Source: a virus
Taxonomy: Duplodnaviria; Caudoviricetes
Reading direction: 5' to 3' (one strand)
IMG/VR virus record: IMGVR_UViG_3300032214_001459
Coordinates: 430-64,429 of that record
Length of the DNA: 64,000 nt
Part shown: piece after piece, positions 12,060 to 61,090 of the stretch
How the letters are laid out: each line of letters begins with the position of its first letter
How positions within the stretch are numbered: position 1 is the first letter of the stretch
Translations under genes and position numbers: made by a program
Notes under the pieces: model-generated
Database searches by the model: none
The model's input: only the letters and a program-made list of their open reading frames with translations
What the model was told of the DNA's origin: nothing

Positions 12060-15000
12060 CTATTTATCATCCGTTTCTTTTTGAGTTTCAATTGGAAGGA
12101 AGCTATAAGAAGGAAGAGCCCCATTCGTTGCCCAGTCGTTGTTCCTTTTCGGGTTAGAAAATCCAAATTTATTCCAGTATTCTCCACTTGAATTCGTTGC
12201 CTCAATCTGAATCAAGGAAACATTATTGTTCTTTGCTTCATTCAGTATTGTCCCTAACATTGTCCTGCCTGTCCCTTCTTCTTTGTGAAGGCTAACAAGG
12301 TAGTCGATAGACAATACACGTCCATCCGAAACATCTCCAATGTTATTCCACCTCTTTGAGTACTCCCCAGAAATTGGAGCATTGCTAATGGCGGTTAGGG
12401 CTATTCCAGTTATTTCTCCGTCTTTATTTCTTGAAATATGCAGACCTGGAGGCCAAGGATTAAGGCTCGGGTCTAAATTTCTTCTATTTTCATCAAAAAT
12501 ACTTTGCAATTTCTCTAGAGTCTGATAAGCCAGACGAGATGATTCCTGCACCTTTGATACAGACTCAAGCTCCTCTAGTAACTCATCTATTCTGGCTTGT
12601 TTCTGGGCTTCTGGAAGATTGCCGTCATAGGCTTCGTCTAGTTGCTCGTCGATTCTCTCTGTGATTAGTCGAATTGTATCCTGTATATCCAGTGTTGCTT
12701 TTTCAACTTCATCAACAAGCTCTTTTGTAACATCTTTCTGTTGATAAGACGAGGTGGTCACTCCTTTTGATGAACTTCTAGATACTGCATCATCTATGAG
12801 TTTAAGTTGTTCTTTGAATTTATCATTTGCTCCAGAGCTAAGGCTCAGACCATCTGTCACTCTTTTATTTCTACCTTTTGACGCTGGCTTTCGTTTCAGG
12901 TCATCATGGCTATATCTAATACGTGTACCAGTCGAGCCGTCATCCTCAAAGTAGTCATAGTCAAACTCTGCTCTGTCGTTAAATTTACGAGTTAAGTCAA
13001 GATATTGATTAAAACGAATCTTATTCTTAATCTTAAGCGTTATTAATTCTTCTTGTTCGTCGGTGGATAGAGAGTCGAAGCTTCTAAGGGCATAATCTGG
13101 AGCAGGACGACTATCCGGCTTCTCTTCTCTTATTTTCTGTCGCTCAGATTCACTATTGTTTGTTTCGTTTAATTCAATATCGTCGTTAAGTATTTCAAAA
13201 CTAAAATCCTGTACACGAATTTCTAAATCCGACCAATCGTTGATTGTTTCATTGTTTTTGAGCATGTTTTCATATTTTTCATATATGCGTTTATATTCTT
13301 CTTCATAAGCGTCGGAGTTAAATGGTTCTACAACCGCCTGACGCTTCCTGATAGATATGTCATGCCTTGGGTTACGTATTCTTATTCCTAATTTTTTTGC
13401 TTCTTTTTCAATCTCGGATAGCGGAATGATATTTTCTGGTATGTTCATGGATTTTTCCATGTCCGTCAACACGGGGTATGGTTTTTTCCTCCACTTATTT
13501 GCAAGCTCTCCATCTGCATATGAAGAATCCATATAAAGTTCTATTAATCTATCCTGTTCCTCTATGGAATCTTCAGAAATGCGCCTATATCCATAATCCT
13601 TGAGGTCTTTAATTCTTTCTTTTCTTAATGTATTTATTCGTTTATTTTTTGCAATTGCAGAACTGACAATGTCGGCATCTATCTTTTCCGAAAAGATATT
13701 TAGTTCTCTGTCTGCACCAGAGCTAAGGCTTGGTCCATCATTTTTCTCTGCTTGCCCAAGCTTTAAACCCCACCCAAGGTCTGATGCCTCTAGCGGTACT
13801 AGTGGGTCAATCCAGTTGAACCCATCAAACAATCCGTCACTCTTCGAGTATCGCAGAATCCCGTTCTCATCTGTCCACATTTTGTCAAGAGCATCTCTTC
13901 CGATTGTGTCGCTTAGCTTATTAAGAACCAAGCTCCTAAATCCGGCATAACCTTCATTAGTGTCTCCATTGGCACTATCGTTTACTTGCAGCTCAAAGAA
14001 TCTCTGTTGTGCGCCAAGCAAGTTAGCTACTTGAGGCCAAACATCTTCACCAAAAGCTCCAAGCCATCCTATGTTCGAAGCCATCTCTCCGTGTCTAGTG
14101 AAGCCCTGCCCAGTGATTAGGTGCATGAATTCATGTGGAGTCGTATATGTCTCTCCAGAGTTATCCCAAGATGGTCTATACAGTGATGCAACTAGGTTTC
14201 TTACTAGAAGCGCTGCTGATACAAATCTTCCACCGTTTTCTGGTGGCTCTTCAGTTGTGTCTGGTATTTGTTTCCAGCCGACTGTTAGTGCTCGCTTTAC
14301 GTCTGGTCTATCTGGGTCTATTCCGGCATCTAGGAGGAGAGTTCTTACGCGAATTGCGTACCTTCTGGCGAATTCATCGTGGTGGGCAACGTTTGCATAT
14401 GCGCGCTGGAACATTTCCTTAACCCTCTTGCCTGCTGGAGAGTCTGAAAATTTAAATGTACTAAGTGGAGTTAGCTTTGTGTTATTTATAACTTCGGCCA
14501 TATTTCTTCCACCCGTTGCTGCGTCACCATTTGCAGACATGACTTTTGAGTCGGCCAAAATTTCTTCAGCTGGGTCATCAGGGAACATGTGTTTTTTCAC
14601 CAATGTCATAAACGGAATACCTGGTGTTGCCTGGTGATACTCGAACATTATTGTATTTAGTCTCGAATACTGGAAACTTCCTCTTTCCCGTGTCTGTAAT
14701 GCGGCTATTGGCACGGACATTATTATTTCATCGTTTATATCTCTAAGAACAAAAGAATTAACACCATCAATTGATTCCTGTCTGAATTCGCGCATCATGA
14801 ATTGCTGGCGCGACTCACCAAGGTCGTTTCTTAATTCTTGCATTTTTATAATTGATTTTGCCGCTGCTGAAGCCCATACATCAAGTGGTGGAAGCGCATA
14901 GTCCCGTGCGGCTTGAACAAACTCATCGTCACCAGCAAGGTCTGCTAGTTCACTGATAACTGGACCAAGTATCTTCTTTGTTGGAGAACCTGCAACTTCG

Positions 15001-18000
15001 ACTCTTGAGTGTCCAAGTCCTTTGAATATTTCGGCAAGTGATTCAATTGGTAGAATTTCTTCTTCAAGACTATTAAATCCAGGGTGTGGACTAAACTTGT
15101 CCTCACTCATTTGCGCTATTTGTAGCAAGAAGTCAAGGAAGTCATTTGTAGATACAGGGGTTCCATCTTTCTTCTTTATTTCTGAAGCCAACTTGTAGAT
15201 AAGTCTTTGGTCAATTGGGGTTGATGGTTCTTCCGGAAGAGAAGCTCTTTCAAAAGACTTTGCCACTCTCGTCAAAATTTCTTCATCGCTAACCATGCCG
15301 GAGCTCAATCCGAGAGCACCTCTCGACGTCATGCGGTTAAGAGCAGACCACTGTCTGTTAGACAACTGCCCGTTATTCTTGTAATACTGAGCCACAACAC
15401 TGCGAGAGAAGTTATCTTTTCTCTGAGAGGCAAGACGTATTATCTCCCTCTTTTCGTCATCCGAAAGATTTATCTTTGGCTGTGCACCAGATGAAAGAGA
15501 TGCGCCATCGGCGATTCGTTTGGCTTTTTTCTTTTCTTCTTCTCTTTGGCGTTTGAGCAGAGCGTTGTATTCTATCTTTGAGTAAACTTGGCCATACATT
15601 GCCCTAAATGTTTGTGTTGCTCCGTCCCGTGCCCCTTCAGCTTCTGCTACGTAGTAGTGGTTTCCGTTATCGACGTAATCTTGCTCATATGCTTTTAGTT
15701 TTTCATACTGATTTTCAAGCGATATAACAATACTTCTGGCGGCCAATCTATTTTCTGCTTCTAGTACTTGTTCTGATGCTTTGGCTGCACCACTGGAGTA
15801 ACCAGCTTCAAAATATCCACCGTTCTCGTGATAAATAGCTTGTTCTTTTAATTTATCTGAAACTTTTTGCCCATCAGAAATGTTCTGTTTCGTTGGTTTA
15901 CGGCCACGTGGTAAGTCACGCTTTTTCGCTCCAGAAGAAAGTGAAGGAGAACTAGTTCCACTAGCAAAAAGCTCTCCAAGTTCACTCAGCTTCGATGAGT
16001 GGTTAACTTTTTCTGAACCAATGTTATATTTTTCTGCTAGCGCGAGCATCAACTTACCGTGACCACGACGATGATAATCCTCGGGGACAAGGACGTCAGA
16101 TATGGTCAGCTTGCCTCGATTTCCAAGCTCGCCCCCAGTGTCGGTGCGTGCGTGAAGGACGCCAACTTCCAATCCGTTTGACCTCATTCTTACTGTGAGG
16201 TTCTGCTCCTCTGTATCATCAAATCTAGTTTTTAGTTCTGATTCTATGGACACCTTTATTGAGTCTCCATTTTTATCTTTAACAGTTAGTTGTACATCTC
16301 TATTTTTAATGCGATTTGATTCGCCAGAAACAGAAAGTTCATCTCTGTTAACCGCTATGGAAACCGAGTTAATGTCTAGATTTGCCCTATTTGCTTTAAT
16401 CCTGTCAATTACTTCGTTTAGATAGTCCCAACGACGACCGCCAGAACGTTCTGCGTGACCCACCGTCGGGTATGGGGTCAGGTCTCTATTAACTATTTTC
16501 CACAAATCATGATTGATTGATTCTCTTGCCACCGGAAGTTTTTGGCCCTTTGGAATAACCGAGCCATTCTTTTTTAGTAATTCAATTATTTCATCCTCTG
16601 GCACTGGTTGACCAACGTTGTAGAAATCAATATTTGTTAAATCATCAATATCATTAAGAATCGTTGCGATTCTTTCGAATTCAGGAACCCCGTAGTAGTT
16701 CTCTATAACCTCAAACGTGTCTCCCTTATTGAACCAACCACCCCTATCCACGAAACGTCTGTATTCTTGGTCAAATATCAAATCTGATTTACCGACACCA
16801 AAAATTGGATACCATTTCCCTACTGGATTGGCCTTTCCGCCTTTGCCCGTGCTCTGGTAGAAGGGTATTCTTATTCCGTTTACATCAACAAGTGCCATTG
16901 GTCTACCGGCAACTGTGAAAATTGGAGACTGTATCTGCTTGCCTGTTTCTGGGTCTATTAAATCAACTTCCGCTATTTGTAAATCTAAATTACGCAAATA
17001 ATCAATAGCAGAATTTACTTTTTCAAGTTGTTTTTTGCGTTCTTTTGGTGAGACTCTTGCCCCTGATGACAAAGATGGTGGCATGTCTTCTACATCGTCT
17101 GGAAGTGGCTCTATTAAGTCATTTACAAAGTTTGATAAATCCTCTTGTAGATTTCTTACTGGAGGATTTGATGTTCCATCAAATTGTGTTGCTGCGGCAA
17201 ATGCTCTACCGTCATCAGAAAGTGCAGAACTATGGTGAAGGTCTTGGTCGGGCCAGAAATCTCTCTGGTATTTGAATAAGGCAGAAGCGAGTCCTCTCCT
17301 CTTGTGCTTGTCATCAATCGCAATTTCGTTAACTATTGATGTTGAATCTTCCCCAGATGGGGTCATGACTGACATAGCCCCAACTAAACCATTTTTCTTA
17401 TTTCTTATATATTTTTCATCTGTCATTCTACTTATTACGGATATACCGACTTCGTCTAGTGGTTTTCCGTAGAAGGAGAGAAGTTCTTGTTCTCTTTTTT
17501 CAACAAATGCATCGAGTTTTGTCTTTTCAAAAACATAAACATTGTCACCAAGTGGACCAGTAGCGAATATCACATATTCTTTATTTTTTCCACTTTCATC
17601 CCTAAAGCTAATCGTGCGTATAGGTGTGGCAAAATTGTCATTTTCTCTATTATCTAAATCACTAACAATATTTAACTTCTGTGAGCCAGATTCGGGAACG
17701 TTTAAGCCAGAAGCCAGGGAAATTGAGTAGTCAAGTCGAGCCAATTCTCTGTCTTCTTCTGAAGACGATGAGAATACCTGTTCCGATGCTGCTGAGTTTA
17801 CTTCTCTCTTCGCTGAGCGCTGTTTAGATGTTCTGCCAGAAGATAGAGCGAGTTCTAGTGATTCATTATCATCCCACGGTCTGCTTTCTGAACCATCACC
17901 AAGAAAACTTTCAATATCTTTTCTTAATTTTTCATTTATTGCATTTTTTCTCACCTCTTGGTTTGGGTGGAAGTAAGCAACAACACCCTCTGCAAATGTT

Positions 18001-20180
18001 TCGGCTGGATTGGTGTGTCCGTATGATGTGATGACACGCGGAACGTCGTTTGTTTCATCTACGGGAACCTTGTCATCCCATAGTTTCATCAGTGGTAGGT
18101 CCCTATCTGTTTGCTTGTAATACTCAGAAAGCAAAAGCGCATTTAGGTAGTTGTCATCGTTTATATTGCCTGAACCAAAGAAATTAGTTCTGTTTTTCTT
18201 TCCTTGCTCGGTGTCTTTGACTGCTCTGAAAACGAGCCAGTGACCCCATTCGTGGACAATCGTCCCACTGATTGATTTGTCTATATGCGCATCAGTTATC
18301 AATGGCATATGCGTATCAGACCACAGAAGAGGTGTCTCTTCTCCTGGTACTGAACCCTCTCTATCGATAAGGGCGCGCTTGTTGAATATTAGAAGATTTG
18401 TACCAGGGGACAATCTTGCTCTAACAAATGGTTTTTTAGACAAAAATCTTTCATTTTGCAGTCTTGTTAATTTTTGACTGACCGATGGAATCGCTTCGTA
18501 TGTTTCAACACCTTTTGCCGACATTACTCCGATGGATGGAGCACCATGGTTTTCGAATGCCCATTTAACAGCTGGAGAAGAGTCGAGCAAAGCCTCCACC
18601 GCATCTCGTGATGCTTTAACGTTTTCTGGGGAGTAGTCGACTTCGTCCCATGGCGAATTCGCCATCATTTCGTCGTAATACTTTTTAAATGCAGCTCTTG
18701 GTCCTTCGATTTCATATGCACCTGGAGCAATGTCATCAACCCACATTCTGAAGTGTCCATCCTGCGAGTCTGGAACAATCAAATCTGCTATCTGTTTGCT
18801 ACTAAGCCCTTTTAGCCAGTCATTCTTGTATGCATTTATCTTTCCGCCAAGAACACTATCGTCGCCGTAATTGTAGTTAGTCGAACGATGCTTCTTAAGC
18901 ATTTCTCGTTCATTTTTTTGAAACGATATAACTGGACGCTTTTTATTGTTATCCAGTTTTATTATTGGGCGCTCCTGTGAGCCAGATGACAAACTTGGTT
19001 GCTGATTCTGCTTTGCAGCCTTAATAAACTCTTCTTTTGCTGCTCTAAATTTTTTTATTTCTGCATCAAATTTTTCATTATCTTTCTGCAGTTTGTTTTT
19101 TCTCTTTTCAGAATCAAGAAGATTAGTTGGCCAATCTCTTTCAAGAGCACCGTTTATTATTGCCGACATAACACGGCCCGTGGCTTGTGCGTCGGCGTCT
19201 GCGGTATGGTGTTTTTCTCCTAGCTCAACCTCTAAATACTTGGTTATCGCGGCAAGACCGTTTGATGGTTTCTTGTTTCCTTCAGAGTCAATAAGAAATG
19301 GCCCATCCTGATTTTCTTCAGACCACTTCGGAAGAGTCATGTCTGCTATGTCTTTTGTGTCCAGGTATCCACCGGGACGCCATTCAATTCCGGCATCGCT
19401 AAGCGTCTGTTCTAGAACGTCTTTGTCAAACGCAGCATTCTGTACACCAAAAATTGCATCTTCTCCAGCGAATTCAACGAGCGCCCTGTGAGCTTCGGCC
19501 ATAGACATCTGTTTGGATAGCCATTCGTCTGTTAGCTGGTTTCCGTCTTTATCTTTTAATTCTCTTGCCGACCATTCGCCAAGCGGCTCTTTTGGATTCA
19601 TGAATAGATTCAGGCGAGCTATTTCTTTATCGCCCTTCATTCTCACAACGCCAAATTGAACTGGCTGACCATTGGCTGACGGTTCTCTGAATTCGTCAAA
19701 TACAAGACCAGTTGTTTCGTAGTCAAAGAAGTTTATTTCGGTATCGTCGTAAATCTCTTTAAACTCTTCCCATGTTTTTGCTTTGCCAAATCTTTCTTCA
19801 GCACTTCCAATAAATGGGCCATATGTGGGTTTTCGTGGGAAAGATGGTTTTTTATCTTTTTCTCCACTAGATAGAGATAATTTTGGGGCATTAGGCATCG
19901 ACGATGGGGTTGGGTCTGGTTGCTCCCAGCCCGGCCACCCATCGAAAATTGTTCCATCTCCGTCGACGTCAACTCTGGTGCGGGGATTCAGGTCTCCATC
20001 TGGGACGCCAAGTCCACGAGCTCCGCGCCTTCTTTCACCACCTATATTTGGTCGGTCAACGAGTCTGCTTGCTGCCGATGAGCCGATTCGCCGGCCTATT
20101 GCCTTGACGTTAATTTCCTCTTTTTTACCACGACGTGACAGGCTAAAGGGAATCTCGAACTCATTATTTTGCGAAGACAT
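12060..20180 (-). CDS. 2706-aa multidomain (polyvalent) protein: DEDDh 3'-5' exonuclease, zincin metallopeptidase-like, three GNAT-like domains
   Basis: FFDYETTG...QNAAFD...LDT...HTADAD (about 19150-19745); HEWGH...PAETFAEG (about 17900-18300); GNAT motif A RRGLAS, RRGHG, GTGRTML; HEFMH; about 10 xL(S/A)SG linkers. Confidence 0.85.
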   Translation of the reverse strand: MSSQNNEFEIPFSLSRRGKKEEINVKAIGRRIGSSAASRLVDRPNIGGERRRGARGLGVPDGDLNPRTRVDVDGDGTIFDGWPGWEQPDPTPSSMPNAPKLSLSSGEKDKKPSFPRKPTYGPFIGSAEERFGKAKTWEEFKEIYDDTEINFFDYETTGLVFDEFREPSANGQPVQFGVVRMKGDKEIARLNLFMNPKEPLGEWSARELKDKDGNQLTDEWLSKQMSMAEAHRALVEFAGEDAIFGVQNAAFDKDVLEQTLSDAGIEWRPGGYLDTKDIADMTLPKWSEENQDGPFLIDSEGNKKPSNGLAAITKYLEVELGEKHHTADADAQATGRVMSAIINGALERDWPTNLLDSEKRKNKLQKDNEKFDAEIKKFRAAKEEFIKAAKQNQQPSLSSGSQERPIIKLDNNKKRPVISFQKNEREMLKKHRSTNYNYGDDSVLGGKINAYKNDWLKGLSSKQIADLIVPDSQDGHFRMWVDDIAPGAYEIEGPRAAFKKYYDEMMANSPWDEVDYSPENVKASRDAVEALLDSSPAVKWAFENHGAPSIGVMSAKGVETYEAIPSVSQKLTRLQNERFLSKKPFVRARLSPGTNLLIFNKRALIDREGSVPGEETPLLWSDTHMPLITDAHIDKSISGTIVHEWGHWLVFRAVKDTEQGKKNRTNFFGSGNINDDNYLNALLLSEYYKQTDRDLPLMKLWDDKVPVDETNDVPRVITSYGHTNPAETFAEGVVAYFHPNQEVRKNAINEKLRKDIESFLGDGSESRPWDDNESLELALSSGRTSKQRSAKREVNSAASEQVFSSSSEEDRELARLDYSISLASGLNVPESGSQKLNIVSDLDNRENDNFATPIRTISFRDESGKNKEYVIFATGPLGDNVYVFEKTKLDAFVEKREQELLSFYGKPLDEVGISVISRMTDEKYIRNKKNGLVGAMSVMTPSGEDSTSIVNEIAIDDKHKRRGLASALFKYQRDFWPDQDLHHSSALSDDGRAFAAATQFDGTSNPPVRNLQEDLSNFVNDLIEPLPDDVEDMPPSLSSGARVSPKERKKQLEKVNSAIDYLRNLDLQIAEVDLIDPETGKQIQSPIFTVAGRPMALVDVNGIRIPFYQSTGKGGKANPVGKWYPIFGVGKSDLIFDQEYRRFVDRGGWFNKGDTFEVIENYYGVPEFERIATILNDIDDLTNIDFYNVGQPVPEDEIIELLKKNGSVIPKGQKLPVARESINHDLWKIVNRDLTPYPTVGHAERSGGRRWDYLNEVIDRIKANRANLDINSVSIAVNRDELSVSGESNRIKNRDVQLTVKDKNGDSIKVSIESELKTRFDDTEEQNLTVRMRSNGLEVGVLHARTDTGGELGNRGKLTISDVLVPEDYHRRGHGKLMLALAEKYNIGSEKVNHSSKLSELGELFASGTSSPSLSSGAKKRDLPRGRKPTKQNISDGQKVSDKLKEQAIYHENGGYFEAGYSSGAAKASEQVLEAENRLAARSIVISLENQYEKLKAYEQDYVDNGNHYYVAEAEGARDGATQTFRAMYGQVYSKIEYNALLKRQREEEKKKAKRIADGASLSSGAQPKINLSDDEKREIIRLASQRKDNFSRSVVAQYYKNNGQLSNRQWSALNRMTSRGALGLSSGMVSDEEILTRVAKSFERASLPEEPSTPIDQRLIYKLASEIKKKDGTPVSTNDFLDFLLQIAQMSEDKFSPHPGFNSLEEEILPIESLAEIFKGLGHSRVEVAGSPTKKILGPVISELADLAGDDEFVQAARDYALPPLDVWASAAAKSIIKMQELRNDLGESRQQFMMREFRQESIDGVNSFVLRDINDEIIMSVPIAALQTRERGSFQYSRLNTIMFEYHQATPGIPFMTLVKKHMFPDDPAEEILADSKVMSANGDAATGGRNMAEVINNTKLTPLSTFKFSDSPAGKRVKEMFQRAYANVAHHDEFARRYAIRVRTLLLDAGIDPDRPDVKRALTVGWKQIPDTTEEPPENGGRFVSAALLVRNLVASLYRPSWDNSGETYTTPHEFMHLITGQGFTRHGEMASNIGWLGAFGEDVWPQVANLLGAQQRFFELQVNDSANGDTNEGYAGFRSLVLNKLSDTIGRDALDKMWTDENGILRYSKSDGLFDGFNWIDPLVPLEASDLGWGLKLGQAEKNDGPSLSSGADRELNIFSEKIDADIVSSAIAKNKRINTLRKERIKDLKDYGYRRISEDSIEEQDRLIELYMDSSYADGELANKWRKKPYPVLTDMEKSMNIPENIIPLSEIEKEAKKLGIRIRNPRHDISIRKRQAVVEPFNSDAYEEEYKRIYEKYENMLKNNETINDWSDLEIRVQDFSFEILNDDIELNETNNSESERQKIREEKPDSRPAPDYALRSFDSLSTDEQEELITLKIKNKIRFNQYLDLTRKFNDRAEFDYDYFEDDGSTGTRIRYSHDDLKRKPASKGRNKRVTDGLSLSSGANDKFKEQLKLIDDAVSRSSSKGVTTSSYQQKDVTKELVDEVEKATLDIQDTIRLITERIDEQLDEAYDGNLPEAQKQARIDELLEELESVSKVQESSRLAYQTLEKLQSIFDENRRNLDPSLNPWPPGLHISRNKDGEITGIALTAISNAPISGEYSKRWNNIGDVSDGRVLSIDYLVSLHKEEGTGRTMLGTILNEAKNNNVSLIQIEATNSSGEYWNKFGFSNPKRNNDWATNGALPSYSFLPIETQKETDDK

Positions 20181-27206: not shown

Positions 27207-27283
27207 GCGTCGGTAGCTCAATCGGATAGAGCAACAGACTTCTAATCTGTAGGTTGTAGGTTCGAGTCCTACCCGGCGCGCCA
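27207..27283 (+). tRNA. tRNA-Arg(TCT)
   Basis: Canonical cloverleaf, loop CTTCTAA, encoded CCA. Confidence 0.95.
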
Positions 27284-29138: not shown

Positions 29139-29157
29139 TTTATGTTATTGTTTTGCG

Positions 29158-40253: not shown

Positions 40254-40753
40254 TATTCTTCAATCTCCCTGAGCATGGACATGGCTGTCCATATAGACTT
40301 TCTCTCCTCGGTTGAGGAAAATCGCATTAATTTGTTCTCAATAGACTTTACCACTTGTCCGTCGCAGCAAGATTTACCAGATAACTGCTCTATTGATTTA
40401 CTAAATCTTGAAGCATCTTCATTTTTCTGAGAAATACTTCTCTTATTTCTGCCAAGAGATGTTTGCACGGACACTCCATCTAGAACTTCTTTCGGTATCT
40501 CTTTACTTTTTTGAATAAATATCATTTCCCATGTTTCTTTATTCTCGCCATCGTCACCATCCCAGAAAACCTTGTGGAATGGGGTTGTTTTGATTCTCTT
40601 TATGTTTCGAGCTCTAGCGACATGTGACTGAAAATCTACCATCATTACTGTTCCATCATCTTTTTCTATTGCCCCATCCATGTCGTCTGCAGAGGCGTCC
40701 AAGATGTAATAAAGCTTGCTACCACCAGATGAGCCAACTAGTGCCGCTTTCAT
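40253..40753 (-). CDS. Hypothetical protein
   Basis: 166-aa ORF, coupled to neighbours. Confidence 0.7.
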   Translation of the reverse strand: MKAALVGSSGGSKLYYILDASADDMDGAIEKDDGTVMMVDFQSHVARARNIKRIKTTPFHKVFWDGDDGENKETWEMIFIQKSKEIPKEVLDGVSVQTSLGRNKRSISQKNEDASRFSKSIEQLSGKSCCDGQVVKSIENKLMRFSSTEERKSIWTAMSMLREIEE

Positions 40754-53200: not shown

Positions 53201-56200
53201 TTTTACGAACACCTCACCATCAGACACGCTCTCTTCTTTTTTAGGTATTATCCAAGAGATTTTCTGGCTACTTCCAGCTTTTGTTCCAGGCTTAAGTTTC
53301 CCAACTCTGTCCATCTCGTCGGTAGTTATATAATCTTTACCAGATTCCATGTCAGGAAGGTTTATACCCTCGCGCATTGGTCTTAATCCCTGATACTTAA
53401 TCTCATTGCCATTTATGTCTGTATATTTTTGGCCCTGTGGACGGAGAAGGTCTTTAAAGAACCTAGCCCCCTTCGCATCTCCTCTTACTCCGCCATCCTT
53501 TGATTTAGGGTATGCAAGGTTGTGTAAAGTCCGGAGTTCTGATTCTCCACCCTTAATCATCTTGTCAATTTTTGCCAACATCTCGTCTTTTGATGGGTAT
53601 CTGCCCTTTTTCTTGTCAAATCTCCATACGTCTTTAAGTAGTTTCGATGGTTTTGGTCTTCCTTCGATTCCAAACTTCTTATCTAGGTCGCCAACAATCC
53701 AGTCGAGCTGAGTGAAGAAATCAAGAAACTTTTCATGCGTATCCGCAGGTATGCCTATGGCTGGAATTTTTCCGTCAGCTCCACCTGGGGCGTATTCATC
53801 TCTAAGCTCGTTGATGGACTTGAGCATCGAGTCTCTTCCATCTTTTTCCAGTATTTCTATAAGGTCTACAGCGACACCATCGAGGGTGTACTTCTCGGAA
53901 ACTGTTCTCAATCTTCCAGCTAGCTCTTGTGGATTTTTTATATCTTCTATTCCGTCAAGGTCCAGGTATGCAATTTGATGCGCATTGATGCCATCCTGGA
54001 TTACCTTCAATGCTTCAACCATTACTCCTGAGTTAGTCGAAGTTAGAACAGCATCGGCGCCAGTCATGTCCTCCACTATCTGACCTTCAGCGCGTGGAAC
54101 ATGTTCGTCGTAAAGTTTTGAAATGATGTCTTTTACTTCTTTTTCGTTTTTGCCCTTAAAGTCGACCGCTCTTCCGCCAAGCTTGTATTTAACTTCTATG
54201 AATCTAAGTTTCTTTTCAAGGTCTTTTTTAGGAAGTATTTTCCCATCTGGTCCGTTTATGTTGAGCGCGTTTATAACAACATTTTGCGCCTCGCCGACAA
54301 CATGGTGCCATATGTTTTTTTCTGGTGTTCCCATGTTTTGATAAAAGTTAAAATCGTCTATATTGCCTTGCATCAGCACGACATTGGCCAAATATGCAGG
54401 CATTGCTCCATACCGGAATGAACGTGTTAGAGGAAGTCTGAATGTTGCATTAGCTTTCTCCAGGGCATCCATGGCTCCTCTGAACCCATAGATTGCTTGA
54501 CGTGAGTCGCCGACCATTATTATTGGCATGTTCTTTGCATTGTCGGCAAGTACTTTTGCCAATACGGGGTTTACGTCTTGGGCTTCGTCGAACATGAATA
54601 CATCAAGAGGCTTATCACTCGTAACAGAAACAATCGATACAGTTCCGGTTACTTGTCTATTACCTGACAGCTCACCCTTTTTTGTTTCTTTCTTCGATGG
54701 AGGATTTAGCTTCCGTATTACTGCGGCAACCTTTTCTCCAGTTTCTGGAATCTTGAATTCTACAAGGTCACCAACCTTTATCTTTCCTGCATCCATGTCC
54801 TCAACGGTTCCAAGTTTGACTTTATCAAATACAGTTTCGTTTGGTCTATGGCCAATCAAACCTTTGTCATACCTGAGGTCTGGATTTGTTAGGGCCCACA
54901 TCTTGATTTGATAGTCCTGCGGGATGAGCACGTTTGATTTTGGGTCAACTGTTTCATCCCAAAGCATTTGTGCATATTGAACCATTTTTTCATCGATTGA
55001 ATCTTCGGTTGGTACTGGTTCGCCCTTTTGTAATGCCTGAATTTTTTCTATATCACGAAGTAGGAAATGTTGTTTTGACAGCTTCTCATCCGAACTTTCA
55101 GCAAACCTGCCAAGAGCTTTTTTGAGATTTTGGGAAATAGTAAAACCATCATCAGTTTCTTCGTCAACAATCCCATCTTTAGAAAGGCGTTCTGCGATAT
55201 TCGGTGCAGAGTCATAGCTTGTGTACCCAAGCTCTCTGTACCCTGGTATCTCTCCTGTGAATTCCTTTGTTTCTCCCTCAAACGTGGTTGCAACGTTTAC
55301 GGTGTTACGTTTTGCTCCTCGCAACTTCTTAGAGTCTCTTGGACCAACTCCAAGCTGTATCTTTCTAGTCGTTCCAGCCCCATAGAACGCATCTCCAGTT
55401 CCAAGAACAAGTGACCAATAAGCTATTTGGTTACCGGTTGCAACACCTGTATTTCTAGGCATTACTCTGTTGCCGTCTTTTGCATTTCCCCTGTTAAATA
55501 CTGTGTAGTAAATTTGCTTACCAGGGTAAAGTGCTGCAACAGCACGAGCATTCTGCTTGAGGTTAGTGGTCTTTCCGGAACCAGCGCCTGCACCAATTGC
55601 AACAATTCCTGATGTCTCACTTTCCAACATATGAACAAGCGTGTCTATTGAAGCCTTTTGTTGTTCTGTTGGTTCAAATTCATCAGGAAGGAACTTATAC
55701 TTTTCTCTATACGAGACAGAGTCGTCTAGTCTTGGAATCGTTGTTTTACCGTCAAGGCTGACGATTGGTTTTGCACCACTCGAAAGAGAAAGTGCTCCAG
55801 ATTCATCAAGAATCCTTCCACTGGAGTCTCTTTGAGTTATGCCTGAGCCATATTCTTTTTCATCGCCAAAGTATCTAAGTTCTTTTACTTTTCTAACACC
55901 AACTTGAGTGCCAGATGAAAGAGCGATTACAGAGTCCTTTGCCTCATCGGTTGCAGCGCCAACAGCTTCTGTGGCTTTTTCTGTAACATCTGGTTTACCT
56001 TTGCGCTCAGTGTCTGGAACACCTGCAAGTCTCCTCATCGTTGGAGACCTATCCATAATGTAATCAGCGGCTTGCTGCGCTTTTTCCATCGCCTTAATAA
56101 ATGCGCCTGGGTCTTCTTTGAGGTTTGAAATCCAACTCTTTATATAGACAACATGGTCTTTTCTTACTTCTGGTGTTATTCCGACTGCTGCTAGAAGAAA

Positions 56201-59200
56201 TGAAGAACCCATTTCTGCAATCAGCTCCTCTGATGCACGAATCTTTTTATTTTTTCCGTAATCTCTTACAGTTTGCCTATCTATACGTGCCGCGCCACCT
56301 GTCCAGTGAGTTAGTTCATGGAAGAGTGTTCCGTAATACTGTTCTGGAGACTTGAACATTTCGTACAAAGGCATCTGTATTAAATCTTCGCTTGGGGAAA
56401 AGAAAGCCCCATCTCCACCAAACTTAATGACTGGCTTAATTTCTTCTATTACTGCCTCAGCATCTTTTATTTTAAGTGCAGGGTCAAGACGTTCTTTGCC
56501 AACATCCAACAGCTTCTTTACGTATGCATCTGGGAGACCTTCAATGTCGTCCAAGTTGTATACAGTCTGAACAATAAAATATTTACCAGTAGAACCCTCT
56601 CTCGGGACAAGGATATTTACCCCATCCTTGCCATCCTTCACCTTCCCACCGAACTTCGCCCATTGCGTTTTGCCAGCCCAGAAATTTCCCCTGTATTTAT
56701 TTTGTCTATGAGAATTAGCGAGCAAGAGTGAGTTCATGCCCTGGTATAGGCGACTTCTTGTTGGGTTTTTTGCGTAAAGAGTAGGGGTTCTCCAAGGTAC
56801 GTCCCAGTACGTTGCAGTTGGATTTTTTTCCATCTCGATGAGAGCTTCAAGAATGGACTTTCCTATTTCGTCATAAATCTTTTTATTTTCACCAGATGAC
56901 AAAGAAAGACCATCAGCCTTATCGGCCAAGGTTTTTGATGCTGGCTTGTCGCCAAAGACACTGCCAGATGAAAGAGCCAAGTTGTACTCAGGGACCTTGT
57001 TGGTGTCTGACTCCATCTTCTCAATAGGAACACGACGCTTGGATTCTTTGCCAGCAGAAGCAATATCTTCAATGTACTTTTCTGTTATTGCAGAACGAGC
57101 ATTCCAGAGAGAATCCTGTTCTTTGGAAATCATTCTTGTTGCTACGTCGCTAGCTTCAATATTCTTCTTATCTTTAATCGTGGATACACGTGAATACTTA
57201 TTTATGTCGCCAATCCACTCATACGACCTATCGCGGATTGCTTCTAGCTTTCCTGCTTCATTGCTTCCAGGCTTTACTGACTCAAGTCTTACATTCGTAT
57301 CCCGAACGGTTGCCTTGTGCTTTGCTAAAGAGCCATTGTTGAGAGCATCCATGGCATCATCAACGATGTCCATATAATCCTGGAACTCATCGTCTCCACC
57401 AGTAACCAGGTCAAATGCCTTCTTTGTGTCAAAGCCATTAGCTTCAACTATTCCATCTCCACCGAGCATGTCTGCAATATCGGTTGTTATGTCATCTTTG
57501 ATTAGAGGGTTCTCTTCAAGGTAATCATGCACCTGGTCGAGTAATCCGTTTCCTTCATCGGTTGTTGTTATGTCGTAGTTGTAGTAGTCGCGACCCCTAC
57601 CACCAGAAGAGAGGGATGGGCTCTCTTCTGTCGCTGGCTTCGATGGGAGATTTCTTGAGTCTCTGCTTACGAGCTTTCCGCTACGTCTATCAACGAGTCT
57701 GTCTGCAAATTGATTTCCCTTGCCGAGCTTCCAGTATTCTTTGTTTTCACTATTGAGGTTTGCTGGCTTAAGGCTTGCCTGATATGCGAGTTCGCCAATT
57801 TCGTCAGCATAAACCTCGTCCCATTGCGCAAGGATTCTGTTGGTTCCCTTGTCTTTCCCTGTATTTATTTTCTGCTCAGCTCTGACGTAGTAGAGGTCTG
57901 GAACAGAGTTATACCCGATGACTACTTGCTGGTCCTTTGTGGAAGGAAGAATCATTTCATTCCCTCTACGCTCAACGCGGCCACCGGATATAGCCATTAT
58001 GTTCCCTCTGCCAATTTGATTCATTGTTTCGCGAAGGTCGAATCTGTCTGGCTCATATCCTCTAGAAGTGGCCCAGTCGTCGCTTGCCCCAGAAGAAAGT
58101 GATACGCCGTCTTTTTCTTTGCGCATTTTGCGCATGTGTCGTTGTTCGCGCTTTCTAACTTCCATTCTAGTTAGACCAAGCTCTTCCGCAACATCTTGCA
58201 GAGAAGCTCCAGTTGTCATTCTCTTGCGATAAATCTCTTCATCACTCATGTCTTTTGGCTTTTTGCGAGAAGTGACTTTTGGTCTTTCTTCTTCTGGGCC
58301 CATCATGTCAAGAAGAGTGTCGTAGAAATCTACATTTGTATCGCTCTCGTAATTTTCTTCGTCAAAATTTGGTCTTGTATCGTCGTCTGCTCCAGAAGAG
58401 AGGGAGAGTGAACTTCTCTTCTTTGCTTCTTTTTTCTTTCTTAATGGGACTGGCGATAATGAGTCAAAACCGTATTGACGCATCCAGTCGGATAGGCCAT
58501 CTTTCCCATCTGGACCAATACCCCTAAATCCAGTTGCATCTGGTCTGTTGTTATACATGAATTCATGCATCGCATCTTCCATGCCGTTGTAGAATTCGTT
58601 GTCATCACCACGTGATGCTTCAAGGAAGGTGCCAGCGCGCATAACCATTCCCGAATACCAATCTCGGTAATCGACAGAGGAAGTGTTTTTATCGCTAAAT
58701 TTTGCTGGACGTCTATTTGTATCGTCACCAAGCCACATGACTCTGGCTTGATTGACGCCCATCTCTCTTCCGCGTAGGTAATCAGGGGACCTGTAGGCAT
58801 CTGGCTTATATCTAGGAACATCAGTCCAGCCGTACCCGGAGTCTTTCCAGTCTTTAATTACTTCTTCAAACTTCTTACGCTTTTCAAGTTCTTCCGGAGA
58901 TACAAGTGACTCAAATTTTGGGTCACCAGAGTGGCGGGTGAGTCTCTTTTCCTGCTCACCAGAAGATAGCGATGGTGTTTTTTCTTTATCGGTTTTTGGC
59001 TTCTTGCTGAAGTCGAGTTCACCGCGTTTTACTTTTTCCTTCTTTGCAGGAGCTTTCTTCGCAACTGCTTTCTTCGCAGCTTTCTTTACTGGTTTTGCGT
59101 CGCCATCGAGAATGTCACTTACATCATCTGCTTCGTATTTTGGTTCTCTACTGGTAATCGTTTTGCCAGGCTTCTCCTTGCCGCCTTCGCCAGGGATATT

Positions 59201-61090
59201 TGCAACGTCTCTTCTTTGTGATGAGGAAAGCTTTGGGTTATTGACTGAACCAGGTCCGTCTGGAGTTGGGTCTGGTTGTTCCCATCCTGGGATGTTGTCA
59301 AAAAGAGTTCCGTCTCTGTTCTTGTCGACTCTTGTTCGCGGGTCAAGGTCGCCTTCCGGCATACCAAATCCACGACCCCTGCGTTTGCCGCCACCGATAT
59401 TTGGTCTATCAATTGCTCTTGAGCCGAGCGACCGACCTATTCTGTAACCGAGGGCTTTACCCTCTATCTCATGTTCTGAGAATTTTTTTTTTAAGTTGTG
59501 GAGAGCCGTATCGACTGCGTCTATGAGGTTTTCAGTTACCCCGGAGATAATGACTATTCCTTCTGAGTCAACAAAAGTCTCTGCTCTGTGGTAATCAAAT
59601 ATTGGGTCAAGGGCTGTTTTTACTCTAAATGCAAAACTTGGCTCGACTGGTATTACGTACGACTTCTCACCCATATCATCGTCATCGCCGAACTCTGCAA
59701 GATTCTTGTACTTGTTTCTTTTCTTCTTTTTCTTGCCAACCGCATTTCTAACAATTCCAAGAACAAACTCGCCTGGATACTTGAGTTCAAGAACATCAAT
59801 AATTGCATTTTCTGCTTCGGAAACATGCTCTTCAAGTTCTTTGGAGCCACTGCTCAAAACAATTCCATTTGGAATAACTGCAAATCTGCATTTTCCTTCT
59901 GGTTCGACTGGCATGTCAATGATTTTGCACTTTGAGCCGCCTTGGTAGAAGACGCAGTTTGAGCACTTAACACCGATGCGTGCTACTTCGTTTTCTTCTG
60001 CAGGGCTATATCCAGCCCATACACCGTTTGAATCTTCATTGAATTTACCGTGGCGTGAAACTATCTTCAGCAAGGCATCGCGAAGGTCTGCCTCTTCCTT
60101 ATCCAAAGATGGTTTTGCGTTTGAATCATACTGAACTGCAGGAAGAGGAATCATTGTTAGTCCATCGCCACTTGGCTTTACGGCGACTGGTATGGATGGC
60201 ATCTGTTGAGGTCTAATCACGCGCTGTGGCTCGTTTGCCGGCATAGGCCTTCCGCTAACCATAGGCATAGGTGCTGACTGTGGAGTGCGAACTGGAGACT
60301 GTGGAATGCTGATTACCTCAGGCGTCCCAAACATGTATCGACCTTGGCTTCTCATGAAGCCACACTTGTACTTCTTGGCACCACTCATCTCGTGGCGCGT
60401 GAATACAACTTCGTCACCATCTATTGAGTGAACAGAAACTTTCGCGCCAAAAAGATTTGAAAGTTCTTTTTCCATTTCTTCGTAGCCGTTGCTCTCATCC
60501 CTCTGAGGCATCATCGCGATAGGAGTTCCATATGCAGAATCGTCTGCCTTTACGGATATCGTTCCTGTCAGCTGATTTGCTCCGTGCAGAACAGGGCTGA
60601 CTTCATAAAGTTCAACTTCATAAAGAATATTCGCTTGTGCCTTTTGGTCAAACTGAGCTCTTAGGGTCTTATAGCCAATAGACCACTCTTGTTCTTCCCC
60701 AAAGAAAGCAACGTTAAGAAATGCCTCTTTGCCTTTTTCTGAATTCAAATTGAACTGGACCTTTGCGAACAAACCGCCTATGCCAGCAATCTTCATTTTC
60801 AACGGAAGACGTGGGTCCTGTGGTCCAACCTCGTAAATTTCTAGAACTTTTCCGATAGGGTCGTTCCAGTTGTGGCCCCATACAACTCTTGGCTTTCTGC
60901 GGAGCAGACTCTTAGTAAAAGCCCCCGAAGCACAAACATCACCAACTGAGTCTTTATTGCCAATTCCGGCCACGAAGCATTCGACTATTCCCTCGGCCTC
61001 ATCAAGATTGATTGGTCCGTTTACTGACTTTGCGCCATGTGCCGACGTTGCTTTGTATTCGAATGCTTCATTTGACATTTTTGGAACCAA
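50258..61090 (-). CDS. 3610-aa prohead protease fusion: HK97-type protease + ArdC-like + SF1 (UvrD-like) helicase
   Basis: GNKDSVGD...GAF..SL...WGHNWNDPIGK...EWSIGY...LYEVSPV..GAN (about 60550-61000); PW...Y.GMN.LLL and FHELTHWTG...EELIAEMGS (about 56060-56880); GAGSGKTT, DEAQD, GDSRQAIYGFRGA, SFRYG, TVHVSKGREW, YIAITRA (about 52540-55680). Confidence 0.9.
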   Translation of the reverse strand: MVPKMSNEAFEYKATSAHGAKSVNGPINLDEAEGIVECFVAGIGNKDSVGDVCASGAFTKSLLRRKPRVVWGHNWNDPIGKVLEIYEVGPQDPRLPLKMKIAGIGGLFAKVQFNLNSEKGKEAFLNVAFFGEEQEWSIGYKTLRAQFDQKAQANILYEVELYEVSPVLHGANQLTGTISVKADDSAYGTPIAMMPQRDESNGYEEMEKELSNLFGAKVSVHSIDGDEVVFTRHEMSGAKKYKCGFMRSQGRYMFGTPEVISIPQSPVRTPQSAPMPMVSGRPMPANEPQRVIRPQQMPSIPVAVKPSGDGLTMIPLPAVQYDSNAKPSLDKEEADLRDALLKIVSRHGKFNEDSNGVWAGYSPAEENEVARIGVKCSNCVFYQGGSKCKIIDMPVEPEGKCRFAVIPNGIVLSSGSKELEEHVSEAENAIIDVLELKYPGEFVLGIVRNAVGKKKKKRNKYKNLAEFGDDDDMGEKSYVIPVEPSFAFRVKTALDPIFDYHRAETFVDSEGIVIISGVTENLIDAVDTALHNLKKKFSEHEIEGKALGYRIGRSLGSRAIDRPNIGGGKRRGRGFGMPEGDLDPRTRVDKNRDGTLFDNIPGWEQPDPTPDGPGSVNNPKLSSSQRRDVANIPGEGGKEKPGKTITSREPKYEADDVSDILDGDAKPVKKAAKKAVAKKAPAKKEKVKRGELDFSKKPKTDKEKTPSLSSGEQEKRLTRHSGDPKFESLVSPEELEKRKKFEEVIKDWKDSGYGWTDVPRYKPDAYRSPDYLRGREMGVNQARVMWLGDDTNRRPAKFSDKNTSSVDYRDWYSGMVMRAGTFLEASRGDDNEFYNGMEDAMHEFMYNNRPDATGFRGIGPDGKDGLSDWMRQYGFDSLSPVPLRKKKEAKKRSSLSLSSGADDDTRPNFDEENYESDTNVDFYDTLLDMMGPEEERPKVTSRKKPKDMSDEEIYRKRMTTGASLQDVAEELGLTRMEVRKREQRHMRKMRKEKDGVSLSSGASDDWATSRGYEPDRFDLRETMNQIGRGNIMAISGGRVERRGNEMILPSTKDQQVVIGYNSVPDLYYVRAEQKINTGKDKGTNRILAQWDEVYADEIGELAYQASLKPANLNSENKEYWKLGKGNQFADRLVDRRSGKLVSRDSRNLPSKPATEESPSLSSGGRGRDYYNYDITTTDEGNGLLDQVHDYLEENPLIKDDITTDIADMLGGDGIVEANGFDTKKAFDLVTGGDDEFQDYMDIVDDAMDALNNGSLAKHKATVRDTNVRLESVKPGSNEAGKLEAIRDRSYEWIGDINKYSRVSTIKDKKNIEASDVATRMISKEQDSLWNARSAITEKYIEDIASAGKESKRRVPIEKMESDTNKVPEYNLALSSGSVFGDKPASKTLADKADGLSLSSGENKKIYDEIGKSILEALIEMEKNPTATYWDVPWRTPTLYAKNPTRSRLYQGMNSLLLANSHRQNKYRGNFWAGKTQWAKFGGKVKDGKDGVNILVPREGSTGKYFIVQTVYNLDDIEGLPDAYVKKLLDVGKERLDPALKIKDAEAVIEEIKPVIKFGGDGAFFSPSEDLIQMPLYEMFKSPEQYYGTLFHELTHWTGGAARIDRQTVRDYGKNKKIRASEELIAEMGSSFLLAAVGITPEVRKDHVVYIKSWISNLKEDPGAFIKAMEKAQQAADYIMDRSPTMRRLAGVPDTERKGKPDVTEKATEAVGAATDEAKDSVIALSSGTQVGVRKVKELRYFGDEKEYGSGITQRDSSGRILDESGALSLSSGAKPIVSLDGKTTIPRLDDSVSYREKYKFLPDEFEPTEQQKASIDTLVHMLESETSGIVAIGAGAGSGKTTNLKQNARAVAALYPGKQIYYTVFNRGNAKDGNRVMPRNTGVATGNQIAYWSLVLGTGDAFYGAGTTRKIQLGVGPRDSKKLRGAKRNTVNVATTFEGETKEFTGEIPGYRELGYTSYDSAPNIAERLSKDGIVDEETDDGFTISQNLKKALGRFAESSDEKLSKQHFLLRDIEKIQALQKGEPVPTEDSIDEKMVQYAQMLWDETVDPKSNVLIPQDYQIKMWALTNPDLRYDKGLIGHRPNETVFDKVKLGTVEDMDAGKIKVGDLVEFKIPETGEKVAAVIRKLNPPSKKETKKGELSGNRQVTGTVSIVSVTSDKPLDVFMFDEAQDVNPVLAKVLADNAKNMPIIMVGDSRQAIYGFRGAMDALEKANATFRLPLTRSFRYGAMPAYLANVVLMQGNIDDFNFYQNMGTPEKNIWHHVVGEAQNVVINALNINGPDGKILPKKDLEKKLRFIEVKYKLGGRAVDFKGKNEKEVKDIISKLYDEHVPRAEGQIVEDMTGADAVLTSTNSGVMVEALKVIQDGINAHQIAYLDLDGIEDIKNPQELAGRLRTVSEKYTLDGVAVDLIEILEKDGRDSMLKSINELRDEYAPGGADGKIPAIGIPADTHEKFLDFFTQLDWIVGDLDKKFGIEGRPKPSKLLKDVWRFDKKKGRYPSKDEMLAKIDKMIKGGESELRTLHNLAYPKSKDGGVRGDAKGARFFKDLLRPQGQKYTDINGNEIKYQGLRPMREGINLPDMESGKDYITTDEMDRVGKLKPGTKAGSSQKISWIIPKKEESVSDGEVFVKLHIGDDGKPSGALIIAGEGANGGKYKFRRWNKVKKTWGPIEDGKPGKIDYHGDISKVIKKMKAEYPDAVIEFRQGLIQQVGTAQTFPSDTPDDFVPPMKGDLPDSSVPRASLPGFFIQGKDSEETARLANELGNRVRQLATEGNTDTDIMTVHVSKGREWKRVRLADDFKNPEDMVPVIPEEELAKLSPKDRLAVERQLQLMRREEHNKVYIAITRAQEQIDIGAVLAKLYFDDSQNASIKSAKDKIAENPDGIYDELQAPAGFYVPYSGDTEARDAARKERRKRLDESFDRYVKSQGKTKDVAPEEDDEPEVEDESGGFDSGDPDFKDVAGPDDDEYDGDNGDDSDLLSLSLSSGAKKKTNRANRRLPFNEQDRQSVADRNILRSKKVPKKRKPAPSAEEFDDLALASGANTPEGRYARRLRAISLSSGSDDIGAGAKNQRVSGKKFAANIAGPRDLAAIRIDGDPRRNDKAKRKLEYAMKFWRGVRERGIALDPEDTTAERKNIEIKNVINSVSKGMAARPKVKIGKVSSNQIKDEVNPDEWFVPVSKLRDAVRIPTEFSSYPSDPDNPNSRMIARWTQTRPLNNDELGKMLALGKSDIAKLSDDDAGVTHDAVRFLLSEIGKQDGFDAWRLFAPTSEKEEGVSEMTPSEKFVENLGRANMRDRFIIETFGKDAFPYWIDKEENGVISQKEYASLGEVSETGKFRSTGIFSKKRGESEFGSMAEEMLLEEAVFGGDDTPSDLVKQSVVEAASAPSDKTSREQFDVDQLLESLGIDKSDKWHEELKRRMVESFGVDDVGLNTREIARNWEAGGVPTTYINEMIRTGMIPDAKSVWKKDESGKKLDQELAASKHSVYEALYEFTQSKHAADKAKNTRRNRDYILNSSDFTVSHKGVAARKGATFSKKTGDERRFSQGELQNVVNRFNEIFGTNYKIDDIFSAEQLRNATKRLREEGRTLYGDDASELGKRVILKKDKDKK

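Follow-up and report, generated by a model that had tools for sequence, protein, structure and literature searches.

A recurrent junction peptide between the cassettes of giant polyvalent phage proteins, a candidate processing signal

The tailed-phage record IMGVR_UViG_3300032214_001459 of IMG/VR (Duplodnaviria; Caudoviricetes) encodes three giant proteins in which a short peptide, [S/A]-L-[S/A]-S-G, recurs at the joints between domains. We analyzed a window of 64,000 nucleotides (positions 430 to 64,429 of the record), which is nearly all of this 64,429-base viral contig. The giants, named A (2706 amino acids, aa), B (2567 aa) and C (3610 aa), are three uninterrupted minus-strand open reading frames (ORFs) that together make up 41% of the contig, and each junction site is named by its giant and aa number. 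The peptide was found to be enriched in the giants, to lie in linkers, to be conserved across the clade, to change genome by genome as a dialect (the junction peptide used genome-wide by one phage), and to mark the points where cassettes have been shuffled. Judged from these sequence patterns, the junction peptide is probably a signal for the proteolytic processing of polyvalent polyproteins that the virion delivers; the cleavage, the packaging and injection that would accompany it, and the enzyme that would carry it out are predictions.

Each giant is a chain of independently folding cassettes, among them an exonuclease, zincins, GNATs, a helix-turn-helix (HTH) domain, ArdC, a superfamily 1 (SF1) helicase, a ParB-like domain and unknown modules. 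According to the mechanism that we propose, the flexible joints between them, bearing [S/A]-L-[S/A]-S-G, would be read by a phage-encoded protease. The giants would be made and loaded as polyproteins by means of the N-terminal S78 protease of C and of a leader element common to A and C, and would then be cleaved to yield individual enzymes for delivery alongside the DNA. With the same signal at every joint, cassettes could be gained, lost or reordered there.

A regular-expression search for L[SA]SG found 10 copies in giant A, 4 in giant B and 12 in giant C, 26 in total, and the residue before the motif was always S, A, G, T or V. These counts and the positions of the sites, taken at the low-coordinate end of each 12-nucleotide site, matched exactly those of a preliminary description of this DNA. 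The enrichment that it implied was also real, since 2000 composition-preserving shuffles gave a mean of 0.548 copies and a maximum of 4. LSSG was the top 4-mer of the three giants with 22 copies, and the next unrelated 4-mer had 5. A weight matrix built from the 26 sites had no match, not even a weak one (score 9-16), in 24 other ORFs of the window, including the portal, major capsid protein (MCP) and primase genes, so the motif is either fully present or absent. A six-frame scan of the window added only four more L[SA]SG, all in ORFs of 53-90 aa taken as spurious. The 26 sites are encoded by 23 distinct DNA 12-mers, so the signal is at the peptide level and is not a DNA repeat, as had been stated before; codon use at the sites is biased, with CTT in 14 of 26 and TCT at the third position in 18 of 26. 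The extended consensus is [L/P/I]-[S/A/G]-L-[S/A]-S-G-[A/S/E].

The sites fall between domains (Table 1). No Pfam envelope contains any of them, and two sites bracket each of the DEDDh exonuclease, both GNAT matches, the ArdC-N plus MPTase region, the helicase and a weak ParB-like match in B (aa 1691-1766, below the Pfam cut-off). An AlphaFold2 model of A residues 1-1100 showed confident domains at 110-392 and 422-771, and all five sites in it (103, 397, 779, 822 and 1037) were in segments with a predicted local distance difference test score (pLDDT) below 50. The same was true of all seven sites in a model of C residues 881-1780, the confident domains of which are at 947-992, 1182-1340 and 1401-1697. 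Thus, every one of the 12 modelled sites is in a low-confidence linker, most of them at the edges of confident domains, which is unlikely by chance because only about 35% of the residues in the A model and about 46% in the C model are below 50. At 8 of 12 sites the core is 75-99% conserved among relatives, compared with 20-56% for the flanks. The preliminary description had presented the giants as enzyme chains in which the motif falls on domain boundaries, and both the Pfam matches and the models bear this out. The RelA/SpoT-like module that it had placed in B (aa ~2000-2176; 41917-42450) was not recovered, with no Pfam match at E<=0.01 in a scan of the whole protein.

The zincin cassette of A could not be assigned to a family. 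PF18818 and PF08401, both present in C, had no Pfam match in giants A or B. Foldseek with the 1100-aa model of A returned matches for the exonuclease only and none for the zincin fold, and an ESM Atlas search with the zincin cassette yielded no more than leads, namely unnamed clusters, M90 and ATLF-like (0.93-0.94), where recognition did not reach the mark set by the tool.

The junction peptide is a property of the whole family. At least three copies of [LF][SA]SG were present in 118 of 119 C-family giants (2000-4700 aa), and the 119 proteins together had 1253 copies when 34.5 were expected from composition. Among 95 A-family giants, 73 were of the LSSG type, 12 were of an xTGxM type and 10 were neither. 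The residues flanking the motif differ by lineage, being S..A in this phage and R..R, K..K, G.. and the variant FSSG elsewhere. The 12 relatives of the xTGxM type have no LSSG and carry [I/L/V]-T-G-[A/S]-M at the equivalent joints, two relatives have L-S-G-S-M, and I-S-G-R-M-G occurs in other genomes. The exonuclease cassette illustrates this: its start is preceded by SLSSGE in this phage, two other lineages have ITGAMS and LSGSMS, respectively, in that place, and its flanks are LSSG in this phage and in G007, ITGAM/VTGSM in G001 and ISGRM in G002 (G and P labels denote genomes and giant proteins of relatives).

The dialect is used genome-wide. We called ORFs in four complete relatives and counted 4-mers in the giants and in the rest of each proteome. 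The top 4-mer of the giants was LSSG in G006 (20 copies in the giants, 1 in the rest) and G007 (17 and 1), ISGR in G002 (13 and 0) and TGAM in G001 (10 and 2). The unlinked giants of one genome had the same dialect in all five genomes analyzed in full, and dialects agreed in six of seven further giant pairs that were assigned to one genome by a weaker proxy. Such a concerted change across unlinked giants is what co-evolution with one trans-acting reader predicts. Phages whose MCPs are 70-80% identical differ in dialect.

Some proteins other than the giants also carry sites. The S78 ORF of G001 (830 aa, with S78 and DUF6321 domains) has two sites, both located beyond the protease domain. A protein of about 1650 aa, encoded after the tail tube and tail assembly chaperone genes in G006 (L100:12597-17543), G007, G001 and G002 and taken to be the tail tape measure, has a site near aa 586 in a Gly/Ala-rich stretch, written in the dialect of its own genome (S-LASG-A in G006, K-LSSG-H in G007 and LSGAM in G001). 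The tape measure region is missing from the contig of the window. The earlier remark that the motif had not been noticed in ordinary genes held within the window, where none of 24 other ORFs has it, and did not hold in the complete relatives. Two further cases were treated as chance: an FASG of the tape measure (about aa 105), which is in a hydrophobic helix, and two sites in a 1391-aa protein of G006 that look fold-internal. As separate observations, the giants of G010 have GATG, TGAT and GPTG as their top 4-mers (75, 47 and 34 copies), a sign of a long repeat protein, collagen-like or Gly-rich, that has no relation to the junction code, and a 4356-aa relative, P0021, has at aa 624-950 a tandem 12-aa unit (AIPLPSPKNRDT) beside an LSSG site.

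Cassettes have been exchanged at the sites. When the giants of this phage were compared with those of G007, the exonuclease cassette of A (103-402) aligned to residues 870-1167 and the zincin cassette (391-800) to residues 1851-2265, and the C-terminal block of C began exactly at site C-3037, aligned to a G007 site. In a breakpoint test with 51 inter-genome high-scoring segment pairs (HSPs) of at least 100 aa, 163 internal ends and 1000 null trials, 27% of the ends were within 10 aa of a site (null mean 5%, maximum 13.5%) and 41% were within 20 aa (null 9.4%, maximum 21.5%), figures in which some HSP ends are counted twice because G000 and G006 are near-duplicates. When C was compared with its 119 relatives, 26% of 896 internal HSP ends were within 15 aa of a site, while random cuts gave 9.7% on average and 27.3% at most. 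Segments 1002-1163 and 1164-1376 of C are common to far fewer relatives than the neighbouring segments. The order of cassettes also differs, exo-zincin-X-GNAT in G006 versus X-exo-GNAT-zincin in G007, and the C-terminal module of giant B is found in an A-type giant of G001 and G002. The idea of a plug-in cassette boundary, put forward in the preliminary description, fits these results well, in that modules recur elsewhere and reordered in related genomes, each flanked by the motif of that genome.

We found a second element, common to A and C. A leader of about 90 aa, which ends in PDPTP, stands near the N-terminus of A and recurs inside C, and in other genomes it is at the N-termini of site-bearing proteins. 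Of 82 such leaders in the giants retrieved, 80 have a site in the next 200 aa, and the median gap is 33 aa. The leader is a candidate capsid-targeting sequence. In C, a run of ten A's coincides exactly with the start of the leader homology, and each of the two shifted frames meets a stop codon within 4-5 codons. A10 or A11 is present at the equivalent place in five of six S78-fused giants, and is absent in G009 and in two unfused S78 ORFs. Two products could result from the run, a short one with the protease alone and a long one in which the cargo follows the protease.

In phage HK97, the S78 protease gp4 removes the delta domain of the MCP by cutting between Lys103 and Ser104. The MCP of this phage has E-F-K-S where an HK97-type delta domain would be removed, that is, at the expected maturation point. 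E-F-K-[S/A] is kept at MCP residue 112-132 in five of five genomes, whatever their dialect, and Y-K-[A/S] at the N-terminus of the protease itself (C aa 11-14) is likewise kept in all five. The pattern E-[FY]-[KR]-[ASGT] was not enriched genome-wide in the five genomes (8 vs 5.5, 12 vs 12.5, 11 vs 10.8, 13 vs 11.2 and 12 vs 9.1, observed vs expected), and only particular copies are conserved. It is likely that the E-F-K-S of the MCP serves as an HK97-type maturation site and represents a second code. Further copies of E/Q-[F/Y]-[K/R]-[A/S] were seen close to the N-termini of head-module proteins, at aa 32 and 192 of B, at aa 95 of a 698-aa ORF and at aa 61 of a 254-aa ORF.

Which enzyme would read the junction code is less clear than the code itself. 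If cleavage occurs, the embedded zincin and the S78 prohead protease are equally plausible readers, each a serious candidate though not one that we would call likely, and a host or other protease is a weaker candidate than either. The preliminary description had named no single enzyme; S78 is the natural candidate and is questioned by the present data. In its favour, S78 is an enzyme known to act in proheads, and five of five LSSG/FSSG genomes have it in cis, fused to cargo that is delimited by sites. It is encoded in a frame of 785-831 aa in the four other-dialect records where it was found. The dialect-independent E-F-K-[S/A] at the MCP maturation point counts against it as the junction reader. 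Residues H73, S137 and H169, the putative counterparts of the HK97 gp4 catalytic residues, do not vary among 26 aligned sequences. Eleven S78 positions differ by dialect, including D77E, R144D and Q146F/V, and these are suggestive at most because only two of the sequences are non-LSSG. No PDB sequence matched the S78 domain at E<=1, and a complex prediction of S78 aa 1-200 with a 48-aa two-site linker scored 0.00, which counts neither for nor against.

As for the zincin, an HExxH zincin is present in a site-bearing giant in eight of eight genomes, so its presence or absence is useless as a discriminator. The zincin cassette of A-type giants is itself flanked by sites, and its versions in the LSSG and xTGxM lineages are too divergent for BLAST to match, while the adjacent exonuclease cassette is still 41-56% identical. 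The zincins may also simply be effectors. A requirement for MPTase-PolyVal in cis was rejected, because C-family giants with S78 and without PF18818 (e.g. P0107, P0109, P0112 and P0119) keep 9-10 sites. We lean slightly toward two codes, with S78 reading E-[F/Y]-K-[S/A] and the faster-evolving zincin reading the dialect junction code. S78 would act at the MCP delta-domain junction and in the propeptides of head-internal proteins, and the code of the zincin (LSSG, FSSG, ITGAM, ISGRM or LSGSM) would mark every cassette joint and the tape measure, so that cassettes would be plug-and-play between giants. The full version, in which two private codes, one of them co-evolving with the zincin, are combined with slippage at a conserved A10 that sets the ratio of bare protease to protease-plus-cargo in the manner of Gag/Gag-Pol, is a tentative proposal that we consider rather unlikely to be right in every part.

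Several observations weigh against a processing signal read by a phage protease. At sites C-998, A-1037 and C-1160, low pLDDT spans whole unmodelled cassettes, and only a position outside a confident domain holds there. The double counting of HSP ends noted above affects the breakpoint figures, and the members of the seventh of the further giant pairs, P0015 (LSSG) and P0208 (ITGAM), possibly lie on a single 180-kb contig. Sites also occur in the tape measure, which does not belong to the capsid, and cutting that took place only in the prohead would leave these unexplained. The MCP and portal have no junction site in any of five genomes, unlike T4- and phiKZ-type systems, and the motif was not found in the cultured relatives GMA6, ChisanaKitsune and Actinomycetia phage DSL-LC01. 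With regard to the enzymes, S78 domains from different dialects retain 73-76% identity, a degree of conservation not easily reconciled with a changed specificity, and the zincin cassette is absent in 11 of 71 LSSG-type A-giants. Across the 71 A-giants, the HExxH variants (HEWGH 30, HEWAH 15, HEYGH 10, HEFGH 3, others 2, no module 11) showed no clean link with sub-dialect.

A non-proteolytic junction signal accommodates part of this evidence. The motif would be bound uncut by a capsid-internal, portal or tail component, or would be needed when the unfolded chain is threaded through the tail at ejection, and the giants would stay intact, like beads on a string. The tape measure, which is also ejected and threaded, bears the motif, and the MCP and portal are without it. 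Linker position and dialects also fit co-evolution with a binding partner, and N4 virion RNA polymerase, ArdC and TraC1 are delivered uncut according to Iyer et al. (2017; PMC5512222). However, tandem sites only 20-54 aa apart (fragments of 24, 45, 54 and 20 aa) look like spacer peptides rather than docking sites, and the core, in which one hydrophobic residue precedes four small ones, is of a kind usual for protease subsites and ill suited to tight binding. In addition, the leader plus site at N-termini (80 of 82) resembles propeptide removal, and we identified no candidate binding partner. We therefore regard an uncut signal as unlikely, though it deserves attention.

It is improbable that the processing signal is read by a host protease, with dialects that mirror different hosts. 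Staphylococcal phage 80alpha does use the host protease Prp, and a host enzyme would explain both why capsid cargo and tape measure have sites and why the conserved S78 does not track the dialects. But phages with MCPs as similar as those described above differ in dialect, which would need frequent changes of host protease, phage-encoded proteases are present in every genome, and we know of no host enzyme with this specificity. More improbable still is a post-translational modification site or a translational event such as 2A-like skipping at the joints. Even though the motif is Ser/Thr-rich and in exposed linkers, no hydroxyl position is kept across the variants (LASG, ITGAM, ISGRM and LSGSM place Ser/Thr differently) and no modifying enzyme is universal to the genomes; to our knowledge, 2A-like skipping has no bacterial precedent. 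Finally, a chance or low-complexity origin, or a DNA-level repeat or recombination site, to which the commonness of Ser, Leu and Gly and the over-used CTT and TCT codons might point, is refuted by the enrichment over shuffled sequences, the family-wide counts, the diversity of 12-mers and the other peptides at the same joints elsewhere.

The processing reading extends an idea that is already in print. Iyer, Burroughs, Anand, de Souza and Aravind (2017; PMC5512222) predicted that embedded peptidases release the domains of polyvalent proteins, by analogy with RNA-virus polyproteins. The giants belong to this class, which is defined by at least two domains of disparate biochemical activity in one polypeptide of a phage or conjugative element: such domains are combined in C (S78, ArdC-N, MPTase-PolyVal and UvrD) and in A (RNase_T and GNATs, with the DnaQ-like and zincin folds of the model), the signature domains MPTase-PolyVal (PF18818) and ArdC-N (PF08401) are present in C, and C and B lie between the portal and MCP genes. 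Giant A is encoded elsewhere and has its leader in common with C. The place of C and B in a head module supports the earlier view of a virion polyprotein system. As in the published polyvalent proteins, giant chains of unrelated enzymes (ArdC-N plus MPTase, ParB-like, GNAT, nuclease, helicase) are found beside virion genes and are predicted to be delivered. Unlike here, no recurrent junction peptide, dialects or defined-site exchange of cassettes is described in the accessible text of that paper (PMC5512222), where assemblin-like peptidases are said to occupy the C terminus of polyvalent proteins in all cases, while S78 is N-terminal in C. Nor did we find a description of the junction peptide or site code in the library of articles searched. 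In phage P1, the Dar proteins DarA, DarB and DdrB likewise bring anti-restriction and DNA-handling enzymes into the capsid, and DdrB is processed before packaging; as far as the same source goes, they are products of separate genes with no shared junction motif (PMC5512222).

Prohead proteases offer a second comparison. It was noted above that cleavage is a prediction here; in the known systems, T4 gp21 cuts at L/I-x-E and phiKZ gp175 at S/A/G-x-E. In SPN3US, the prohead protease gp245 cuts 14 A-X-E sites in nine head proteins, and 13 of these cuts remove N-terminal propeptides (PMC10052503). The likeness is that one short motif occurs in many virion proteins, that N-terminal propeptides end at a site, and that the protease itself is processed, or would be here. 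The differences are that these enzymes are of the T4 gp21 type and not S78, that they mostly remove propeptides rather than separate modules, and that no dialect switching is described for them in the accessible text (PMC10052503). Moreover, they have the motif in their MCP and portal, from which it is absent here, where the tape measure has it.

Compared with HK97 head maturation, this phage has the same order of portal, S78 protease and HK97-fold MCP, and E-F-K-S where the delta domain would end. S78 membership is clear from a PF04586 match above the gathering score and from its place next to the portal and upstream of the MCP. Unlike in HK97, about 25 kb of cargo genes separate the protease from the MCP, the protease carries a fused cargo of about 3400 aa, and the junction code is unrelated to the K/S site. 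Polyproteins of eukaryotic RNA viruses and retroviral Gag/Gag-Pol share with the giants an embedded protease, short sites between products, spacer peptides and a slippery run at the joint of protease and cargo, and here too the sites lie between folded products (12 of 12 modelled and none in a Pfam envelope, with C-412 doubtful). They differ in that this is an uncultured DNA phage with at least three putative polyproteins and a tape measure on one code.

If the peptide is a cutting signal, there would be DNA viruses that make polyproteins and cut them into dozens of anti-defence and DNA-handling enzymes, and the 2017 prediction of polyvalent-protein processing becomes testable at defined residues. 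With the code, thousands of giant metagenomic proteins that lack annotation could be divided into functional units from their sequence alone. The code would also reveal which cassettes phages exchange, and the dialects would be a natural experiment on protease-site co-evolution. A short orthogonal protease/site pair could also serve as a tool.

The coordinates of the giants, their domains and all 26 sites are collected in Table 1. The minus-strand head module is of the HK97 type, in the order portal, giant C, a 555-aa ORF, giant B, five smaller ORFs and the MCP.

Table 1. Features of the giant proteins and their surroundings, with positions in the 64,000-nucleotide window.
Feature	Position	Strand	Remarks
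Giant A, 2706-aa polyvalent protein	12060..20180	-	10 sites; outside head module, after primase/helicase gene
Giant B, 2567-aa polyvalent protein	40750..48453	-	4 sites; zincin HEIAH at aa 563
Giant C, 3610-aa polyvalent protein	50258..61090	-	S78 protease at N-terminus; 12 L[SA]SG sites
Portal protein	61187..63256	-	PF04860, E=4.5e-50; site-free
HK97-fold MCP	34244..35626	-	PF05065, E=5.8e-42; no junction site
E-F-K-S, MCP aa 112-115	35282..35293	-	candidate HK97-type maturation site
Leader of A, aa 13-104	19869..20144	-	ends at site A-103; homology to C
DnaQ/epsilon-like DEDDh exonuclease cassette, A aa 110-392	19005..19853	-	Pfam RNase_T; Foldseek on model
Zincin cassette, A aa 422-771	17868..18917	-	HEWGH at aa 643; confident fold; Peptidase_Mx/M90 matches only sub-threshold (Pfam E<=5)
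GNAT match, A aa 928-971	17268..17399	-	Pfam
GNAT match, A aa 1323-1386	16023..16214	-	Pfam
Peptidase_S78 (HK97-type prohead protease), C aa 35-178	60557..60988	-	PF04586, E=2e-10, 41.5 bits, cut-off 21
Run of ten A's, codons 533-536 of C	59483..59492	-	exactly at start of leader homology
Leader-like element of C, aa 532-624	59219..59497	-	57% identical to A aa 13-104, E=5e-24
Sigma-70 region-4-like HTH, C aa 959-991	58118..58216	-	below Pfam cut-off; confident small helical domain in model
ArdC-N + MPTase-PolyVal zincin (HELTH), C aa 1403-1668	56087..56884	-	PF08401, E=1.2e-12; PF18818, E=7.8e-36
UvrD/SF1 helicase region, C aa 1814-2851	52538..55651	-	Pfam
Site A-103	19863..19874	-	
Site A-397	18981..18992	-	
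Site A-779	17835..17846	-	
Site A-822	17706..17717	-	LASG
Site A-1037	17061..17072	-	
Site A-1414	15930..15941	-	
Site A-1562	15486..15497	-	
Site A-1625	15297..15308	-	
Site A-2152	13716..13727	-	
Site A-2447	12831..12842	-	
Site B-278	47611..47622	-	LASG
Site B-1261	44662..44673	-	
Site B-1366	44347..44358	-	
Site B-2176	41917..41928	-	LASG
Site C-412	59846..59857	-	VLSSG; doubtful, lineage-specific, directly after conserved Cys-rich domain
Site C-708	58958..58969	-	SLSSG; first family-wide site after leader
Site C-897	58391..58402	-	
Site C-998	58088..58099	-	
Site C-1160	57602..57613	-	
Site C-1373	56963..56974	-	
Site C-1397	56891..56902	-	
Site C-1724	55910..55921	-	
Site C-1769	55775..55786	-	
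Site C-2983	52133..52144	-	
Site C-3037	51971..51982	-	LASG; exact start of homology block with G007 giant
Site C-3057	51911..51922	-	

Site C-412 is the one doubtful entry, as only 6 of 108 relatives have the motif at its position. A Cys-rich, zinc-ribbon-like domain of C (aa ~317-442; window 58931-59900) comes after the protease and is 49% identical to part of the ORF annotated as capsid maturation protease in DSL-LC01, a phage that has a 3289-aa giant without the junction motif. A 509-aa ORF downstream of the MCP gene (32625-34154) bears DUF6321 (E=1e-27), which in G001, an ITGAM-dialect genome, is fused straight after the S78 domain in the 830-aa ORF. DUF6321 may be a scaffold or protease-partner domain that has become a separate ORF in this phage.

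Among cultured phages, the Gordonia phages GMA6 and ChisanaKitsune have the nearest MCPs, with 46-48% identity. A related MCP is encoded on 440 IMG/VR stretches, with contigs of up to about 170 kb, and complete relatives are about 137-170 kb in size, of which the giants occupy about 21-25%. The contig also carries genes for ribonucleotide reductase, thymidylate synthase, a 2-oxoglutarate (2OG)-Fe(II) oxygenase and a carbamoyltransferase, together with five tRNA genes found by ARAGORN (Met, Arg-TCT, Asn, Ser-TGA and Thr-TGT, at 7351-7424, 27207-27283 and 28677-29311).

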